The notes: a model not told the origin generated them from the sequence alone. A stretch of 64,000 nt of DNA from Candidatus Micrarchaeota archaeon (GCA_043803815.1 JAZDJR010000014.1:40389-104388); one strand, 5' to 3'; counted from the stretch's first letter, positions 3,366-13,504 are shown. Translations and numbers: made by a program.

Positions 3366-3439
3366 GCCGGTGAAGCATATCCTGGTTTTGCAGCGGTTTT
3401 GTAAACCGCAGGCTGAGGGTTCAAATCCCTCCACCGGCT
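3366..3439 (+). tRNA. tRNA-Thr(TGT)
   Basis: GCCGGTG/CACCGGC acceptor, GCGGT-TT-TGT-AA-ACCGC anticodon arm, GAGGG-TTCAAAT-CCCTC T-arm; TTTAAA about 28 nt upstream. Confidence 0.92.
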
Positions 3440-5322: not shown

Positions 5323-5502
5323 TGCCCTTGCCGGGAGTTGAACCCGGGTCTCAACCGCACTCCCTGTTGATAATTTTTTCCAAGGTTTTTTGCGATCCGA
5401 TTTTGCCAAAAAGGCAAAATGAGCCCATTCGAGCTTGCTCGAATCGGGCAGCAAAAAAGTTGTTTGAGAGGGTTGTATCCTTGGCCGCTAGATGACAAGG
5501 GC
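5323..5502 (-). tRNA. tRNA-Glu(CTC) with 107-nt intron (5358-5464)
   Basis: GCCCTTG/CAAGGGC acceptor; CAACC-CT-CTC-A|C-GGTTG anticodon arm; CTCT/GGAG helix with 3-nt bulges; CCGGG-TTCAACT-CCCGG T-arm. Confidence 0.9.
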
Positions 5503-5540: not shown

Positions 5541-6062
5541 TCATTTGGCCAGTTTGAACTCGGCTACGGTTTTCCAAACCATGTGTTGAGGCGTGTTTTT
5601 AAGCAAGGCCAATTTGTCAAAAACTCCCCCTTCCGGCATTTGGCTTTGGGCGGCTTGAATCATCGGCTGTTTGGACGCAAGGTCAAAGTCGCCGTAAATC
5701 ATCGTAAAATGCGGCATGAATCCGCGCTTGTCCGACCGGCCAAAGACGGCTTCGCTTTTGGCTCTGCAATCAAACAGTTCTTTCGAATCTTTTACCCTGA
5801 TAAAAACGCATCGCACAAAATCATCCATGTGCTCGACCTTGGAAAAAACAGCGGCAATTGGCTTGGTTTGATTGGCAAGCCGCTTTGTTTTTTCAACCAG
5901 TTCTTTTTCGCGGTTTTCATCCTGCGGAATCTGGACAAGAAGCGAAACATGCGGTTCGAAAAAAGGAGCGTTGTATTTTCGGCTTAATCTGTCGATAATT
6001 TTTTTGAGTGGTGCGCGCGTTTTTTTGTCCGGCAAAAGCCAAACGTGATATTCGTTTTGCAT
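5541..6062 (-). CDS. 2H phosphoesterase (cyclic phosphodiesterase / 2'-5' RNA ligase-like)
   Basis: Two HxS/T motifs: FEPHVSL and FMPHFTM. Confidence 0.85.
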   Translation of the reverse strand: MQNEYHVWLLPDKKTRAPLKKIIDRLSRKYNAPFFEPHVSLLVQIPQDENREKELVEKTKRLANQTKPIAAVFSKVEHMDDFVRCVFIRVKDSKELFDCRAKSEAVFGRSDKRGFMPHFTMIYGDFDLASKQPMIQAAQSQMPEGGVFDKLALLKNTPQHMVWKTVAEFKLAK

Positions 6063-6079: not shown

Positions 6080-6493
6080 TTATTGGCCGGGAACTGCGCC
6101 GGCGGTTGCCGCGGGCGGCAGGCGAAACTCGATTGTGATGTCCTGGTTCAAGGTCAAGGAATCGATTCCTTGGGTGAATTCTTCGCCGTTTACAAACGTT
6201 CCCATCTGGCGGTCGGATGTGGAGTGCAATTCGTTGACGCCGGTGACTTTTTTTCCATTGGCTTGCAAACTGATTTGCAATTGGGCCATTTGGCTTAACG
6301 CCGAAAACGCATTGGTTCCTTTCGGAAATTCCTGGAACTTGTCAACGACAATCAGGTTGCGGTCCAAAGCGCGCAGGTGAACCTCGGCCGTGGTTTTGGC
6401 TTCGGGAGTGGAAGAACCGTTATTGGAAGAAGTGCATCCGGCAAGGACAATCGAAACGGCAATCAAAAGCAAGGCCGCGCTTTTCCAGTTCAT
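6080..6493 (-). CDS. Putative lipoprotein with DUF4430/transcobalamin-like domain
   Basis: Lipobox VLAGC; GTNAFSAL...VTGVN...FVNGE...ITIEF pattern. Confidence 0.6.
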   Translation of the reverse strand: MNWKSAALLLIAVSIVLAGCTSSNNGSSTPEAKTTAEVHLRALDRNLIVVDKFQEFPKGTNAFSALSQMAQLQISLQANGKKVTGVNELHSTSDRQMGTFVNGEEFTQGIDSLTLNQDITIEFRLPPAATAGAVPGQ

Positions 6494-6531
6494 AGGCACT
6501 AATAGGAAAAAGCGGTATAAAAAACCCACCC

Positions 6532-6915
6532 AAGTTATGTAGCAAACTAACCAACGTTTTTGGGTTTTCGTATGGAAAAAAAACTGATAAACCGATTGAC
6601 TTTGTCCAAAAATTTTCGGATAATCTGCAACTGCAATTTATCGCTGGCTTATGGGATACCGACGGCGGAAAGTCGGGAAAAACATACGCTTTTTGCAATT
6701 CATCCAAAAAAATGGTTTTATATGTAAAAGATTTTATGGAAAAAAACCAAATCAGCACCCGATTTTACGAACAGTATAAAGGGCCATTCACTTGGTATTT
6801 GCTCTTTGTTCAAATTCGGGACAAAGAAAAATTTCTTAATTTATTCCCGCTAAAAAACACGAGGAAGTATGGTGTGCCGGTGGGGAGATTTGAACTCCCG
6901 ACCCCTACATTATGA
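6532..6915 (+). pseudogene. N-terminally truncated LAGLIDADG endonuclease overlapping the tRNA-Met 3' half antisense
   Basis: Open frame ...FGFSYGKKTDK...QFIAGLWDTDGG...CNSSKKM... with no start codon before the motif; stop at 6913-6915 is antisense to the anticodon loop. Confidence 0.8.
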
Positions 6916-6946
6916 GTGTAGTGCTCCACCGCTGAGCTACACCGGC
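6875..6946 (-). tRNA. tRNA-Met(CAT), elongator type
   Basis: GCCGGTG/CACCGGC acceptor, CTACA-CT-CAT-AA-TGTAG anticodon arm, GGGAG-TTCAAAT-CTCCC T-arm; lacks initiator features. Confidence 0.92.
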
Positions 6947-6995
6947 AAAAGAATCCGTTACTCAATTTTCGGCGAAAGCATTTTTAAGGGTTTAT

Positions 6996-7655
6996 TCAGC
7001 GCATCCGGCTTTTGACTTCGATTCCGGGGTTGTATAAAATCAGCCGGTCCGCGTATCCGATGAATAATCCGGTTTCGATGACTCCGGGAATTTCCTTGGC
7101 CGAAAAATTGATGTCTTCGGGAGAATAAACCTCGTCGATTTTGATGACGGCAAGATAATTTCCGCTTTCGGTCAAAAACGGCCGCTGGCTGACGGTTTTT
7201 AGGCCGCAAGGTCCCAGCTTTTCAAGCGCAAGCAGGGTGCGTTTGTATCCGAACGGCGTGATTTCAACCGCCATGGAACCGTTCAGTTTTTTCACGAAAT
7301 TTTTTTTCTCGCACACCACCACCAGTTCGTCCGCGCTTTGGCAAATCATCTTGTCGCGCACCAAGGAATGCGAATCGGTTTTCAAAAAATTGTACTGCTC
7401 GTCTATCTGGTCGGCAAATTCGATGGCTAAATCGATTTCGCTTTCGTCAATCGACACAACCGGAAGATGCAGTTCGGTCGCGATTTCCGCCAGATGCATG
7501 GAAGTCGGAACAAAAAAAATCGACAAATCCTGCTGTTCCAGCCTCCAAACCAATTGGCGCAAAAACTGCTCTCCCAGGTGGCTGGTTCCGATGGAAACCA
7601 CGGAACCGTTTTTGACATACTTGGCAATCAGGCCTTCAATCGTGGACTCGTCCAT
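6996..7655 (-). CDS. rpiA: Ribose-5-phosphate isomerase A-like protein with divergent active site
   Basis: Overall pattern VPTS...D...AD.ID...K...VEITPFG...TESGNY...IPGVIETGLF. Canonical DGADE and KGGG are replaced by EFADQ and KTDS. Confidence 0.8.
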   Translation of the reverse strand: MDESTIEGLIAKYVKNGSVVSIGTSHLGEQFLRQLVWRLEQQDLSIFFVPTSMHLAEIATELHLPVVSIDESEIDLAIEFADQIDEQYNFLKTDSHSLVRDKMICQSADELVVVCEKKNFVKKLNGSMAVEITPFGYKRTLLALEKLGPCGLKTVSQRPFLTESGNYLAVIKIDEVYSPEDINFSAKEIPGVIETGLFIGYADRLILYNPGIEVKSRMR

Positions 7656-7727
7656 AGCCAAAATAAGGATTATTGGACTATAAAAGAAATTCGATTAAAA
7701 AATGGAAATTGGGCTGAAAACGGGAAA

Positions 7728-8564
7728 TTACTTTTTTTTGCCCGTTTTTCCCTGGTGGCGAATAAACGCGTTAACCGCATCCATGATTTCAATCGGAACC
7801 GCAATTACGACCGTATTGGAAGCTGTTGGCCCCAGGCCGTCGATGGTCTGCAGGGTTCGCAATTGCATGGCGCCGGGCATTTTGGCCATGATTTCGGCGG
7901 CCTTGGCCAGGTTGTCGGCTGCCATGCGGTCCCCTTCGGCCTTGATAATCGTCGCGCGTTTTTCGCGTTCGCTTGACGCTTGTCGGCTCATCAATCGCTT
8001 TAAGTCTTCGGGCATGTCGATGTCCTGCATTTTGATGCTTGTGACCTCGATTCCCCAGGCAATGCTTTCTTTTTCGACAATCGTTTCAATCTGCTTTCCG
8101 ATTTGTTCGCGCTCCGCCAAGACTTCGTCCAGCATCTGTCCGCCGACGACATCGCGCAAAGCGGTTTGCGCGTACTGCGAAACCGCGTATTCGTAATCCT
8201 GCACGTTAATGATTGCTTTGGAAGCATCCACTACCTTGAAATACAATACCCCGTTAATCGTAACCGGAACATTGTCTTTGGTAATCGCCTGCTGGCGCGG
8301 AATATCAATCGTGGTTATCCGCATGTCGATAATCCGAACGCGCTCGATAAACGGAAAAATAAAATTCAAGCCCGCCTGCAACGTGCGGTCCATTCGGCCC
8401 AAAGAAAATATTACGCCGGTCTGGTATTGCTGGACAATGCGAATCGACAAAGCCAAAAGCAAAATAATATAAATCGGAAGAAAAATCCAAAGTCCCAAAG
8501 ATAAAAGCGCAACCGCAATCGCCGCCAAAATCAGGCCGATAACCAGTTTGGGGCCGTTGTTCAT
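7728..8564 (-). CDS. SPFH/stomatin (slipin) family membrane protein
   Basis: ITKDNVPVTINGVLYFKVVD, AQTALRDVVG, REKRA.II.AEG and AMQLRTLQT motifs. Confidence 0.93.
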   Translation of the reverse strand: MNNGPKLVIGLILAAIAVALLSLGLWIFLPIYIILLLALSIRIVQQYQTGVIFSLGRMDRTLQAGLNFIFPFIERVRIIDMRITTIDIPRQQAITKDNVPVTINGVLYFKVVDASKAIINVQDYEYAVSQYAQTALRDVVGGQMLDEVLAEREQIGKQIETIVEKESIAWGIEVTSIKMQDIDMPEDLKRLMSRQASSEREKRATIIKAEGDRMAADNLAKAAEIMAKMPGAMQLRTLQTIDGLGPTASNTVVIAVPIEIMDAVNAFIRHQGKTGKKK

Positions 8565-8739
8565 ATGGTATTCTTCCAGCAGAGAATTTAAAAAACCAAA
8601 TCCAAAAACGGGTCTAAGTATCCAAAAACGCAGGCCACGCGGCGGGGTGGGTGCGAACAGTTAAAACCGGTTTTCAGCGGAAACGAGGTGCGTGCAAAAT
8701 GACTTATTCCAAAATACGGCTATTTTATTGCTGATTGAA

Positions 8740-9813
8740 ATGCGTGTTGGTTTTGGGGATGCTGCTATTCGCACCGAGTTTTTTGAACTGGCTAAAGCAG
8801 GAGCGAGCTGCAAGACTTGGCAGGTATTCAGCCAATTGCTAAAAATGAGACGAACAAGATTGGAGCGTTTTCGGTATGGTCAGCAACTGTTTTCAGAGGA
8901 ATTATTTGAAAAACTCTTGGGATTTTTGCCTGGAGATGAACGGGAAAAATTTCGAAAATCCACTGTTTTTAACTCTGATAATTGGGGGCAAGTCAAGGGA
9001 GGAAAAAGGACGGCGAAATTGCATCCCGAGAATTATGAGCGGGCGCGTCAATTTGCAATTAATGCAACAAAAGAAAAAGCAAGATTGCAAGAAGATAACT
9101 TTGATTTGACAATGCCTCTTTCAGAGGAGTTGTGCGAGTTGGTGGGCGCGATTATCGGAGACGGCTGCATTAGCGGATTTAAGACCAAATATGGTCACTA
9201 TCAGAATCATGTTTCCATAACCGGCCACAGTGTTTTGGACAAAGATTATTTGGGTTATATGGGCAGTCTTTTGGGAAAGTTTTTTGGGATTAAAGTAACA
9301 ACGCGTTTTCGAAAAACCAAAAAAGCAATGGTTGTTTTTGTTCATTCCAAACTCGTTTTTTCTTTTTTCACCAAGCGTTTCGGATTTGTTCCCGGTCCAA
9401 AGGCATTCACGGTAAAAATCCCGGAAGAAATTTTGAAATCTGAAGAGCGATTTGTTTTTTCAACGATTCGAGGAATATACGATACCGACGGCTGTATTTT
9501 TTTTGACAGGCGAAAACCATACGGCAGACCGTACCCTCGAATTTCACTGCAAATAGTAAGCAAACCGTTGGCCGAACAATTGCATGGTTTTTTACGGCGG
9601 TATTTTTCCGTTCGTTTCGGAAAAAACCGCAATCGCAACTCGTATTTCGTTGAAATTTACGGCCATGAACAATTAGCAAAGTGGATGAACTTAATCGGGT
9701 TTTCTAACCAAAAACATTTGAATCGATATTATGCTGGAATGAAGAATAGCCCGTGGGGAGATTTGAACTCCCAACCCCGTCATGGTCAGACAACAAGTTA
9801 TGTATACCAATGA
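8740..9813 (+). CDS. Free-standing two-motif LAGLIDADG (DOD/intein-like) endonuclease
   Basis: ELVGAIIGDG and TIRGIYDTDG motifs, no intein splicing blocks, more AT-rich than flanks. The last 66 nt overlap tRNA-Thr(GGT) antisense. Confidence 0.88.
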   Translation: MRVGFGDAAIRTEFFELAKAGASCKTWQVFSQLLKMRRTRLERFRYGQQLFSEELFEKLLGFLPGDEREKFRKSTVFNSDNWGQVKGGKRTAKLHPENYERARQFAINATKEKARLQEDNFDLTMPLSEELCELVGAIIGDGCISGFKTKYGHYQNHVSITGHSVLDKDYLGYMGSLLGKFFGIKVTTRFRKTKKAMVVFVHSKLVFSFFTKRFGFVPGPKAFTVKIPEEILKSEERFVFSTIRGIYDTDGCIFFDRRKPYGRPYPRISLQIVSKPLAEQLHGFLRRYFSVRFGKNRNRNSYFVEIYGHEQLAKWMNLIGFSNQKHLNRYYAGMKNSPWGDLNSQPRHGQTTSYVYQ

Positions 9814-9842
9814 CGAGCAAAACCAGGCTATGCTTCACGGGC
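9748..9842 (-). tRNA. tRNA-Thr(GGT) with 21-nt intron (9784-9804)
   Basis: GCCCGTG/CACGGGC acceptor; CGTCA-TT-GGT-A|A-TGACG anticodon arm; BHB TTGG/CTGA plus ACA/TGT. Confidence 0.9.
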
Positions 9843-9876
9843 GAATAGCTACTAAAAACCGCTTGGAAAATGCTTT

Positions 9877-11139
9877 TTAACCCATCATTTCAAGCAGTTT
9901 GGAAAGGCCGACCAAGGAATTGGGCAAGTCAAATTGCCCTTTTTTTTGCAAGTCCTTGACCGTTACGGTTCCTTTTTTTTCCTCGTTTTCGCCGATAATC
10001 GCGAGAAAACGGATTCCTTTTTTTTGGCAGTACTCCGAATTTTTGGACACGTTTCGAGACAATAAGTCAAACTCCGCATTAATTCCTGCTTGCCGGAAAG
10101 CGTCGGCCGCTTTTAACGCCAAAGCGGATTGTTTTTCCGTAAACGCCATGACCAGCACCCGGGATTTGGGTGGAACTTTTTTGTTTTGTTTTTCCAAAAC
10201 ATCGAGCAGGCGGTCAACGCCAAACGAAATTCCGGTTGCCGGCGTTGCTTGTCCGCCGTACAATTCCACGAGCTTGTCATAGCGCCCGCCGCCGCCGACA
10301 CTCGGCCCCTGCTTGGTCTTGATTTCAAAAACAAATCCGGTATAATACTCCAGTCCGCGGGCCAATGACAAGTCCAGTTTTACCGCTTCGGTCAGATTGT
10401 TTTGCTTGACCAGTTCCAAAAGCTTTTCCATTTCTTCCATCGGCTTTTTGTTTTTCAAAACCGCCTTGATTTTTTTCAAATCCTTTTCCTTTAGCACTCC
10501 AAGGATTTTTTTGCCGATTCCGCATTGCTTTAATTCTTCCTCGACCTCTTTTTCCCCGATTTTGTCAAGCTTGTCGATAGAGCGAAAACAATCCGCAATT
10601 TTTTCCTTGGGAACCCCGCAGGAAAATGCGAGTTCTTCCAAAAGCGGGCGAGAATTCAACACCACCCAATAATCGATTTGCAATTCCTGCATGACCTTGC
10701 ATCCGATTTGCAGGCATTCAAAATCCGCCAAAATTCCGGCTGCACCTATAATGTCCACGTCGCATTGCGTGAACTCGCGGTAACGCCCAGCCTGCGGCCG
10801 GTCATAGCGGTACACGGTTCCGATTTGGTAACGCTTAAACGGCTTGGGCAAAGTGGAATTTGAGGCAATTACCCTGCCCAAAGGAACGGTTAAGTCAAAC
10901 CGCAATCCGAGTTCGCGGTCGCTTTTGTCCTTGAAATAATAAATCTCGTTTTTGATGGCTTCTCCGCCAGAACCTTTTTTTGCCAGCAACCCGAAATCTT
11001 CCACTATCGGCGTCTGCAAGGGCTCAAAGCCAAAACTTTCAAACACGTTTCTGCAGGTGTCTTCAATGGACTGCTTGACGCGCATCTGGTCAGGCAAAAA
11101 ATCGCGCATTCCCCGAACCGTCTGAAATTTTTCCGTCAT
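9877..11139 (-). CDS. hisS: Histidyl-tRNA synthetase
   Basis: RGMRD, LRFDLTVP, YRYDRPQAGRYREFTQ, LARGLEYYTG and GGGRYD motifs. Confidence 0.97.
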   Translation of the reverse strand: MTEKFQTVRGMRDFLPDQMRVKQSIEDTCRNVFESFGFEPLQTPIVEDFGLLAKKGSGGEAIKNEIYYFKDKSDRELGLRFDLTVPLGRVIASNSTLPKPFKRYQIGTVYRYDRPQAGRYREFTQCDVDIIGAAGILADFECLQIGCKVMQELQIDYWVVLNSRPLLEELAFSCGVPKEKIADCFRSIDKLDKIGEKEVEEELKQCGIGKKILGVLKEKDLKKIKAVLKNKKPMEEMEKLLELVKQNNLTEAVKLDLSLARGLEYYTGFVFEIKTKQGPSVGGGGRYDKLVELYGGQATPATGISFGVDRLLDVLEKQNKKVPPKSRVLVMAFTEKQSALALKAADAFRQAGINAEFDLLSRNVSKNSEYCQKKGIRFLAIIGENEEKKGTVTVKDLQKKGQFDLPNSLVGLSKLLEMMG

Positions 11140-13348: not shown

Positions 13349-13504
13349 GGTCCCGTAGTATAGCCTGGATAGTATACAAGCTTGCGGTAACCTTTTAGGA
13401 AAAGGTTAGCGAAAAAAATACGTCGTCCTGTTTTCAACAGGACAGCGGTATGTTCGCAAAGTTGCAATGAGCTTGGGACCTGGGTTCGAATCCCAGCGGG
13501 ATCG
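13349..13504 (+). tRNA. tRNA-Arg(GCG) with 82-nt intron (13388-13469)
   Basis: GGTCCCG/CGGGATC acceptor; CAAGC-TT-GCG-G|A-GCTTG anticodon arm; perfect BHB (TTGC/GCAA, AAC/GTT). Confidence 0.92.

Follow-up and report, generated by a model that had tools for sequence, protein, structure and literature searches.

Free-standing homing endonucleases are known mainly from phages, and archaeal LAGLIDADG enzymes from rRNA introns and inteins. In collaborative homing, a free-standing endonuclease gene lies beside the psbA gene of cyanophages, whose intron splits the target of the enzyme, and gene and intron can spread together. Here we analyse two LAGLIDADG genes, one intact and one truncated at its 5' end, in a stretch of 64,000 nucleotides (nt) from a Candidatus Micrarchaeota archaeon (GCA_043803815.1 JAZDJR010000014.1:40389-104388; this whole stretch is called the window). 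Both run antisense into the 3' part of a tRNA gene. Comparison with their relatives indicates that they probably belong to a large DPANN family of LAGLIDADG homing-endonuclease genes, free-standing and docked on tRNA genes as site-specific, selfish mobile elements.

The closest working analogue is SegB of phage T4, described as a free-standing GIY-YIG homing endonuclease of the T4 tRNA cluster with a 27-bp site that includes a T-psi-C stem-loop motif (PMC2330249). According to the same account, SegB drives the inheritance of its own gene plus flanking tRNA genes (PMC2330249). Both systems consist of free-standing endonuclease genes among tRNA genes. SegB differs, however, in its GIY-YIG fold, in its phage host and in being one gene in a cluster, as opposed to a radiation of isoacceptor-tied lineages, and it is described neither with an antisense tRNA overlap nor with duplicated tRNA halves left behind.

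Among archaeal intron and intein enzymes, I-DmoI, PI-PfuI and the V-ATPase intein endonuclease domains (2dch) resemble the intact window gene in their double-motif LAGLIDADG core with both acidic motif residues. Unlike these enzymes, the window genes lie outside introns and inteins, beside a tRNA gene and not within rRNA or protein genes, and the intact one adds a conserved N-terminal domain without family assignment. Collaborative homing offers a possible model for the intron-bearing partner tRNAs met among the relatives, but it concerns a phage group I intron, whereas here 10 of 23 partner tRNA-Thr genes carry an intron and the empty-site alleles carry one as well.

The closest published observation comes from Caldiarchaeum subterraneum, where population-level heterogeneity is described at tRNA-Thr(GGU), with an insertion carrying an 813-bp open reading frame (ORF) (PMC3293823, Sugahara et al. 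2012). This ORF has several paralogues, one of them beside tRNA-Thr(CGU), and a tRNA fragment left behind and intron gain are also described (PMC3293823). The authors proposed tRNA-Thr as the specific target and took the ORF to be recombinase-like and the element to be plasmid-derived (PMC3293823); the passages on the ORF do not identify it as LAGLIDADG, and it is compared here by description only. Integrases of the pNOB8 and SSV types, as presented in that source, land in tRNA genes, and the ends of the element are left with duplicated 3' parts of the tRNA (PMC3293823). The present elements share with them the use of tRNA genes as landing sites and, in relatives only, duplicated tRNA 3' parts. 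They differ in having no integrase and in their unit of ~1-1.3 kb with a single LAGLIDADG ORF, and no direct repeat of a tRNA 3' part at both element ends was found in the window. A full-text search, with subscription journals outside its scope, returned no paper on stand-alone LAGLIDADG genes docked on archaeal tRNA genes. The pattern is large and apparently undescribed.

Two LAGLIDADG genes antisense to tRNA genes

The main features of the locus are listed below. Scores marked R1 come from our own covariance model, built from 40 intron-less tRNAs of the surveyed loci, which recovered tRNAs already known from Rfam.

8740-9813, plus strand: intact free-standing double-motif LAGLIDADG endonuclease gene, 357 amino acids (aa), of the tRNA-Thr(GGU/UGU)-docked lineage (ORF, Pfam and tree)
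8740-9084, plus strand: conserved N-terminal domain of ~95-115 aa, without family assignment (alignment of 21 sequences)
9133-9165, plus strand: first LAGLIDADG motif, CELVGAIIGDG, acidic D141 kept (alignment)
9469-9492, plus strand: second LAGLIDADG motif, RGIYDTDG, acidic D250 kept (alignment)
9748-9813, plus strand: unconserved 22-codon ORF tail, antisense to the 3' half of tRNA-Thr, its intron and its anticodon loop, with the stop in the anticodon stem
9748-9842, minus strand: tRNA-Thr(GGU) with a 21-nt intron (9784-9804) at the canonical position 37/38; Rfam 41.9 bits, R1 62 bits
6496-6915, plus strand: 5'-truncated LAGLIDADG pseudogene of the tRNA-Met(CAU)-docked lineage, second domain only, no start codon; Pfam 32.3 bits
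6875-6946, minus strand: tRNA-Met(CAU), called by ARAGORN; Rfam 72.2 bits

The arrangement pointed out in an earlier, sequence-only reading of the window, a LAGLIDADG ORF antisense into the 3' part of a tRNA gene, is indeed present twice, with overlaps of 66 nt on tRNA-Thr and 41 nt on tRNA-Met, and, as stated there, an intact and a decayed stage stand side by side. The ORF of the intact gene extends from 8692 or 8740 to 9813, and homologues align from the ATG at 8740 (residue 2 on). It reads through the 3' half of tRNA-Thr and its 21-nt intron and stops in the anticodon stem, just as had been described, with its TGA (9811-9813) in the 5' strand of the stem. Homology to relatives stops near residue 330-332, ~4 codons short of the tRNA.

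LAGLIDADG_3 (PF14528), at 35 bits (cut-off 22.5), is the sole Pfam domain in the 373 aa of ORF 8692-9810, where it spans residues 255-336 with numbering from 8692. Over profile positions 113-313, matches to solved chains were obtained for 7qsu (1.7e-10), 1dq3 (2e-06), 2dch (0.0058) and I-DmoI (0.04-0.06). In the alignment of 21 sequences, the first motif has C132, E133, G136, G140, D141 and G142 invariant, and the second R244, G245, T249 and G251, with D248 and D250 conserved in at least 90%. The N-terminal domain has its own set of invariant residues (F14, F15, G47, N81-W82-G83 and G87-G88); it gave no match in Pfam or NCBIfam and Atlas scores below 0.9, and it may be an extra DNA-binding module.

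The truncated gene retains the second motif alone, in a LAGLIDADG_3 (PF14528) match of 32.3 bits against the same cut-off of 22.5. Its TGA (6913-6915) lies opposite positions 32-34 of tRNA-Met, so that the earlier placement of its end opposite the anticodon loop stands, and the antisense overlap comprises the last 41 nt of the tRNA. The frame opens at 6496, slightly upstream of the start given earlier, 6532, and contains no ATG, GTG or TTG before 6712. The absence of an intron or intein context, also claimed for both genes, is borne out, as intron RNA families gave no match at E<=1 over 6300-10000 and the Pfam scan of the window's LAGLIDADG ORFs gave no intein domain.

The same reading had drawn attention to the last 30 nt of the two overlapped tRNAs, 28/30 identical and unlike the other tRNAs of the window. 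The identity is an outlier, ranking first among the 351 pairs formed by the 27 tRNAs of the genome, and the remaining tRNAs match the Thr end at 14-22/30; the count of eight window tRNAs has to be corrected to seven. In three other genomes with both lineages, the likeness of the Thr and Met ends is 17-20/30 instead of 28/30, and the T-arms of tRNA-Thr genes beside relatives differ widely. A common T-arm target for both window genes was considered and is ruled out as a general rule by these divergent T-arms and by the 17-20/30 seen elsewhere. The shared end is a local oddity, due to chance or to a local conversion event, and no general feature of the family.

Nor could we uphold the idea of a single family sharing one 3'-end target. 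BLASTP between the two window proteins found no similarity (best E 1.4), the two ORFs use different reading frames through the T-arm, and the proteins belong to separate lineages, each with its own isoacceptor. Judged by these comparisons, the window genes are two distant lineages, each specific to its own tRNA isoacceptor, and not copies of one another.

Relatives and their tRNA partners

We searched a phylum sample of 215 genomes, in which the relatives are named Iainarchaeota, with a match threshold of E<=1e-5. Homologues of the intact gene were found in 138 of the 215, often several in each. The best 29 loci outside the window were then scanned with Rfam; one of them (L025) ends at a contig edge. 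All 23 informative loci (L002-L024) have a tRNA-Thr convergent on the 3' end of the gene, with anticodon GGU in 19 and UGU in 4, and the tRNA carries an intron in 10 of them and none in 13. In these loci, the conserved part of the protein finishes at the tRNA 3' end or no more than ~16 nt from it. The five more distant loci (L026-L030, 34-37% identity) show another arrangement, with tRNA-Thr(CGU) 15-93 nt upstream on the same strand in 5/5.

The fragment has relatives in nine other genomes only, none of them in its own family, which are 46-63% identical over the C-terminal 113 residues. Eight of their frames are open over 284-313 aa and the ninth is cut to 153 aa. In 9/9, a convergent tRNA with a CAU anticodon loop begins exactly where homology ends, at the same protein residue (eight of these tRNAs were found by Rfam, the ninth by R1). 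In several partner tRNA-Met genes, one or two introns interrupt the anticodon stem or lie close to it.

Stop codons taken from the tRNA, as the sequence-only reading had suggested, prove to be the usual state. Overlaps in the 21 uninterrupted frames of the Thr clade range from -3 to 89 nt, 19 of the 21 reaching at least 19 nt and taking their stop from the tRNA, with an unconserved tail; in the Met lineage, the window's frame included, 10/10 frames extend 19-61 nt into the tRNA and end there.

The assembly containing the window (1.08 Mb, 36 contigs, 85.6% complete) has 13 LAGLIDADG_3 matches. Most lie inside open frames of 858-1347 aa, which are probably intein-bearing host genes; such long frames occur on contigs C16, C15, C31, C18, C25, C9 and C5. 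Three free-standing LAGLIDADG_3 genes score over the cut-off, the two in the window and a third, and 3/3 abut a tRNA:

C7:12083-12955: third free-standing LAGLIDADG gene; 30 nt beyond its end lies a same-strand tRNA with an intron

ARAGORN named the tRNA at this locus (C7:12083-13079) Ile(GAU). Its anticodon loop, however, reads CUGAAG/A around a 21-nt intron, and it is therefore tRNA-Phe(GAA). Among the ten relatives nearest to the C7 gene (54-69% identity), the arrangement recurs: tRNA-Phe(GAA) lies 30-55 nt downstream on the same strand in nine (seven above 48 bits, two weak), and in the tenth the contig ends, though the same tRNA sequence begins there. A D-loop intron (43-53 nt) is present in most of the partner tRNA-Phe genes, and in the partner tRNAs of L037-L045 and L047-L055 introns occupy unusual places, with anticodons misread by standard callers. 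Two tRNA-Lys genes lie upstream of the C7 endonuclease gene.

To widen the sample, the next rows of the hit list were taken in order, giving 60 regions that were scanned with R1; their 64 match rows correspond to 62 genes, two being split by frameshifts. Four rows in which the 3' part of the gene is lost at a contig start (G162:C41, G083:C63, G109:C84 and G176:C13) were excluded. In 53 rows, a tRNA scoring 40 bits or more lies within 120 nt of the match, and at L100 and L106 one lies no more than 30 nt from the end of the ORF; adjacency to a tRNA is thereby seen for 55 of the 62 genes. Among the partners are Thr(CGU), Thr(GGU/UGU), Ala(CGC), Val(GAC), Arg(GCG, UCG and UCU), Lys(CUU and UUU), Phe(GAA), His and Ile, the anticodons of some heavily interrupted ones being uncertain. 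At L088 (G101:C43), a single tRNA-Lys(CUU) stands between two different LAGLIDADG genes, and at L049 (G104:C4) the order is LAGLIDADG gene, tRNA-Lys, LAGLIDADG gene, tRNA-Phe.

As a baseline, 29 of 1216 mechanical ORFs of at least 150 aa (2.4%) in the window's genome lie within 120 nt of its 27 located tRNAs. Against this figure, the enrichment next to tRNA genes, which had been put forward as a check, is very strong.

A scan reaching beyond the phylum, in which each species was represented by one genome, gave 80 loci. Iainarchaeum and ainarchaeum are the names of the closest, and the more distant ones carry the names Nano-, Woese-, Pace-, Aenigm-, Micr-, Undin-, Alti- and Bathyarchaeota. After 13 loci had been excluded, most of them named Iainarchaeum or duplicates, 57 of the remaining 67 show a tRNA no further than 150 nt from the match, in many cases tRNA-Thr and usually downstream on the same strand.

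We then built a FastTree phylogeny of 108 proteins, with five short rows excluded, and used it for clustering only. The supported clades follow the tRNA partners:

Thr(GGU/UGU)-convergent clade, including the window gene and its nearest relative G162: 28 rows, support 99
Thr(CGU)-upstream clade: 19 rows, support 92
Met clade: 8 rows, support 100
Phe clade: 11 rows, support 100
Arg(GCG) clade: 5 rows, support 98
Arg(UCG) clade: 3 rows, support 99
Ala(CGC) clade: 3 rows, support 99
Val(GAC) clade: 3 rows, support 100

A second, distant clade of four rows (support 100) is also convergent on tRNA-Thr(GGU). Mapped onto the tree, the tRNA-partner labels need 29 changes (minimum 18), compared with a mean of 75.3 after shuffling, and 0/200 shuffles were as low. 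As far as this clustering goes, each lineage is tied to one tRNA isoacceptor and one orientation.

Mobility, decay and alternative readings

Fixed vertical inheritance, which the sequence-only reading had named as a finding that would speak against it, is not what the relatives show. In genus g32, G069 carries a 2.3-kb insert right after the 3' end of tRNA-Thr(GGU), consisting of the endonuclease gene and ~1 kb besides, and the site is empty in G066 and G070, where the next gene follows ~30 nt past the tRNA. The tRNA-Thr of G066, intron included, is identical to that of G069 at 91/92 positions. The same site holds a first-clade gene in G072 and a second-clade gene in G067. A leftover tRNA half was looked for at the far end of this insert and not found. 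In G069 (L003, G069:C51, 2803-3037), a segment of ~230 nt immediately upstream of the endonuclease gene recurs in many places across g32 at 72-90% identity; two of its copies adjoin further LAGLIDADG genes (G068:C84, G067:C10). The segment is reminiscent of the Caldiarchaeum repeat 'a', which is coupled with ORF 'b' (PMC3293823). At another empty Thr(GGU) site of the genus (L119, G068:C88, ~2715-2830), the tRNA seems to stop after the intron, the 3' half and spacer being gone and the upstream region of the next gene following directly after the intron. Either the tRNA is truncated here, or a deletion may have taken an endonuclease gene and the tRNA half with it.

In the window's own family, the nearest relative, G162, is N-terminally truncated and 59% identical; G161 holds at the same site a 245-aa second-clade gene (44-50% identical to clade-2 members) that overlaps the tRNA by 19 nt; and in G160, histidyl-tRNA synthetase (HisRS) and tRNA-Thr are followed directly by RpiA, with no endonuclease gene. 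A groundwater DNA study shares 11% of words with the window, and its contigs come from a relative ~89-93% alike. They cover RpiA and band-7 and the last ~95 nt of the endonuclease gene with tRNA-Thr, leaving 8713-9601 uncovered with no joint reported, and are uninformative on presence or absence of the gene. A sporadic distribution with empty and occupied alleles and signs of transfer is found in relatives; at the exact window locus, the comparison is at family level only.

Several relatives also show traces of the unit that would move. L027 (family f24) and L030 (f14) have in common a block of 1151 nt at 84% identity, compared with 70% for the flanking gene. The block runs from about tRNA position 36 (in L030 from just past the intron) through the gene to a downstream partial tRNA copy, and the LAGLIDADG gene is its only ORF. 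In the Thr(CGU) lineage, a second, partial tRNA-Thr was detected downstream of the gene in 8/19 loci (R1, 21-45 bits); by eye, the ORF stop of L028, L069 and L071 is the TAA of the copy's anticodon loop (UUCGUAA), and the tRNA 3' half follows. In the Thr(GGU)-convergent lineages, a tRNA 3' remnant lies upstream of the gene in 4/28 loci (L012, L017, L021 and L024; 0/200 shuffles each), that of L021 extending into the anticodon stem. These remnants suggest that in at least some events the mobile unit includes the tRNA 3' half, with a break in the anticodon arm; for the window itself, this part of the argument rests on relatives. Judged by Pfam and Rfam, the window genes stand alone, and the extent of the L027/L030 block and the remnants suggest that the tRNA 3' half is transferred along with the gene. 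Internal stops or truncations are frequent among the copies, the window fragment being one example. Four close pairs gave ratios of non-synonymous to synonymous substitution rates (dN/dS) of 0.08-0.17, and both motif acids are conserved, which argues that purifying selection keeps the proteins functional.

Taken as homing elements, the genes would work as follows. The enzyme would cut the same tRNA locus in genomes without the gene, and repair from the occupied copy would then copy the gene into the cut locus. Some lineages at least would have the neighbouring 3' half of the tRNA copied along, so that the tRNA stays functional. Once fixed, the gene would either continue homing or decay. In the lineage of the intact gene, the conserved coding part ends a few bases from the tRNA 3' end, the frame running on into the tRNA until a stop appears, and the fragment is a decayed remnant of a second lineage docking likewise on tRNA-Met(CAU).

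A more specific proposal, which we put forward tentatively and regard as possible at best, is that the endonucleases make their cut in the anticodon arm of tRNA genes, or close to it, and that they spread as cassettes with a replacement tRNA 3' half. Each invasion would leave an orphan half, the breakpoint would be the canonical intron position, and partner introns would confer immunity to re-cutting.

A number of observations weigh against reading the genes as selfish homing elements. Seven of the 62 surveyed genes (L064, L078, L079, L080, L086, L095 and L115) have no adjoining tRNA, four of them having weak matches alone, 140-200 nt off, and outside the phylum 10/67 loci have no tRNA within 150 nt. 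The FastTree run was a quick one and warned of long branches. G160 lacks the band-7 gene at the site as well, so that its boundaries are unclean, and the clean empty-site comparison comes from another genus. The window locus shows no leftover tRNA half (161/200 shuffles scored as high, and with filters off nothing exceeded 8 bits). Furthermore, the order HisRS, tRNA-Thr, endonuclease gene is common to families f1, f3 and f4, which also fits long vertical persistence, and strong purifying selection together with the 138/215 prevalence would equally fit a host-useful gene.

The last two points belong to the main rival, which we consider rather unlikely, namely that the gene encodes a domesticated LAGLIDADG protein, a nuclease or a factor binding DNA or RNA that the host retains to serve the neighbouring tRNA gene in regulation, processing or locus maintenance and inherited mainly vertically. 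The low dN/dS ratios, the presence of homologues in 138 of the 215 genomes, the gene order kept in three families, the conserved N-terminal domain and a tRNA-Thr link that persists over several archaeal phyla would all suit a host function. The retention of both catalytic acidic residues, however, speaks against domestication, and so do the empty and occupied sites inside one genus, the same site held by two distant lineages, copies with stops or truncations such as the window fragment, the 84% cassette common to two families whose flanking gene reaches 70%, and several unrelated copies per genome beside different tRNAs. The selfish-element reading is the best supported.

The docking could instead be a relic, the endonucleases having once resided inside tRNA introns (bulge-helix-bulge or group I) and been left beside them by rearrangement. 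LAGLIDADG genes are described as being carried by archaeal rRNA introns (PMC2602781), many partner tRNAs have introns, some at unusual positions, and several Thr(CGU)-lineage ORFs end in the anticodon loop of a partial tRNA copy, that is, at the canonical intron position. We nonetheless find a stranded origin improbable: the window gene runs antisense to both the tRNA and its 21-nt intron, the region gave no match to an intron RNA family, 13/23 partner tRNA-Thr genes in the closest lineage are intronless, and the precise docking position is constant over many families.

Improbable as well, in our view, is an origin as passenger of a tRNA-attaching mobile element of the integrase type with tRNA 3' duplication, as in pNOB8 and SSV. 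Partial tRNA copies do flank some relatives, the 2.3-kb insert of G069 holds ~1 kb besides the gene, including the ~230-nt g32 repeat, and Sugahara et al. 2012 read a similar tRNA-Thr insertion as a recombinase-bearing element (PMC3293823). Yet neither an integrase nor a transposase domain turned up in the Pfam scan of the genes next to the window elements, the L027/L030 block of 1151 nt consists of the LAGLIDADG ORF and tRNA parts only, and neither the extra segment of G069 nor its repeat has a match in the window's genome. The endonuclease lineage itself, moreover, co-varies with the tRNA partner.

Finally, chance neighbourhood in a compact, tRNA-rich genome with accidental read-through has a negligible probability: all seven window tRNA hits do lie in the first 14.1 kb, and the overlap length varies with an unconserved tail, but the idea is already contradicted by the tRNA-adjacency counts (23/23, 5/5, 9/9 and 55/62 relatives against the 2.4% baseline), and the partner tRNA is lineage-specific.

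Surrounding genes, tRNA annotation and wider meaning

The genes around the two elements, as assigned by Pfam, are conventional:

9877-11139, minus strand: HisRS, conserved upstream neighbour of tRNA-Thr(GGU)
7728-8564, minus strand: SPFH/band-7 gene, between the two elements
6996-7661, minus strand: RpiA gene, between the two elements
5541-6062, minus strand: 2H-phosphoesterase (CPDase / 2'-5' RNA ligase superfamily), beside the tRNA-rich stretch

In addition, there is a lipoprotein-like ORF without assignment. The order HisRS, tRNA-Thr, endonuclease gene is also present in G017, G009 and G161, and G162 has the three in the same order on a single contig, ~2 kb apart.

The tRNA-Thr(GGU) gene was missed by default ARAGORN, by the whole-window Rfam gathering scan and by the genome-wide tRNA scan. 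On short stretches it reaches 41.9 bits, with the Rfam cut-off at 29, and its predicted fold is a cloverleaf with an extended anticodon arm (minimum free energy -37.2 kcal/mol, z -2.94). Both this tRNA and tRNA-Tyr(GUA, 3366-3439) have A8-A9 and a D-stem U:U mismatch. The R1 scan of the 64-kb window gave seven tRNA hits at E<0.01. Two weaker matches were noted, a tRNA-like one at 5323-5415 on the minus strand (Rfam 26.4 bits, under the cut-off; R1 31.8 bits) and a partial one at 13439-13496 on the plus strand (R1 21.9 bits). They may be intron-rich tRNAs; the suggestions made by ARAGORN are Glu(CUC) and Arg(GCG), with long introns.

Run with introns on the whole genome, ARAGORN returned many false long-intron calls at lower thresholds, with introns misplaced; it named tRNA-Phe(GAA) 'Ile gat' and tRNA-Met genes 'Ser/Phe/Pro'. 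Because it missed tRNA-Thr(GGU), misplaced introns and misread anticodons, Rfam and R1 were used instead. A second tRNA-Thr(GGU) with a 32-nt intron, called by ARAGORN at C22:16002-16105 on the minus strand, is doubted because its discriminator A and GGGCCC-type acceptor stem are unlike those of all tRNA-Thr seen.

For annotation, the survey carries a warning: ORFs running antisense into tRNA genes in such genomes are real genes, and intron-bearing tRNAs beside docked ORFs are easily missed, as the tRNA-Thr described here was by three standard scans. The evidence suggests that stand-alone LAGLIDADG genes have radiated widely in DPANN archaea, with signs of transfer, replacement and decay, and this radiation offers a natural panel of endonucleases of related fold with different, highly conserved targets. 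The family is also a candidate agent for the introns, fragments and splits of archaeal tRNA genes, an open question since split tRNAs were found. If the tentative proposal of cutting in or near the anticodon arm were true, it would be a direct driver of archaeal tRNA gene disruption, through intron gain at 37/38 and elsewhere, the scattering of fragments and split tRNAs.

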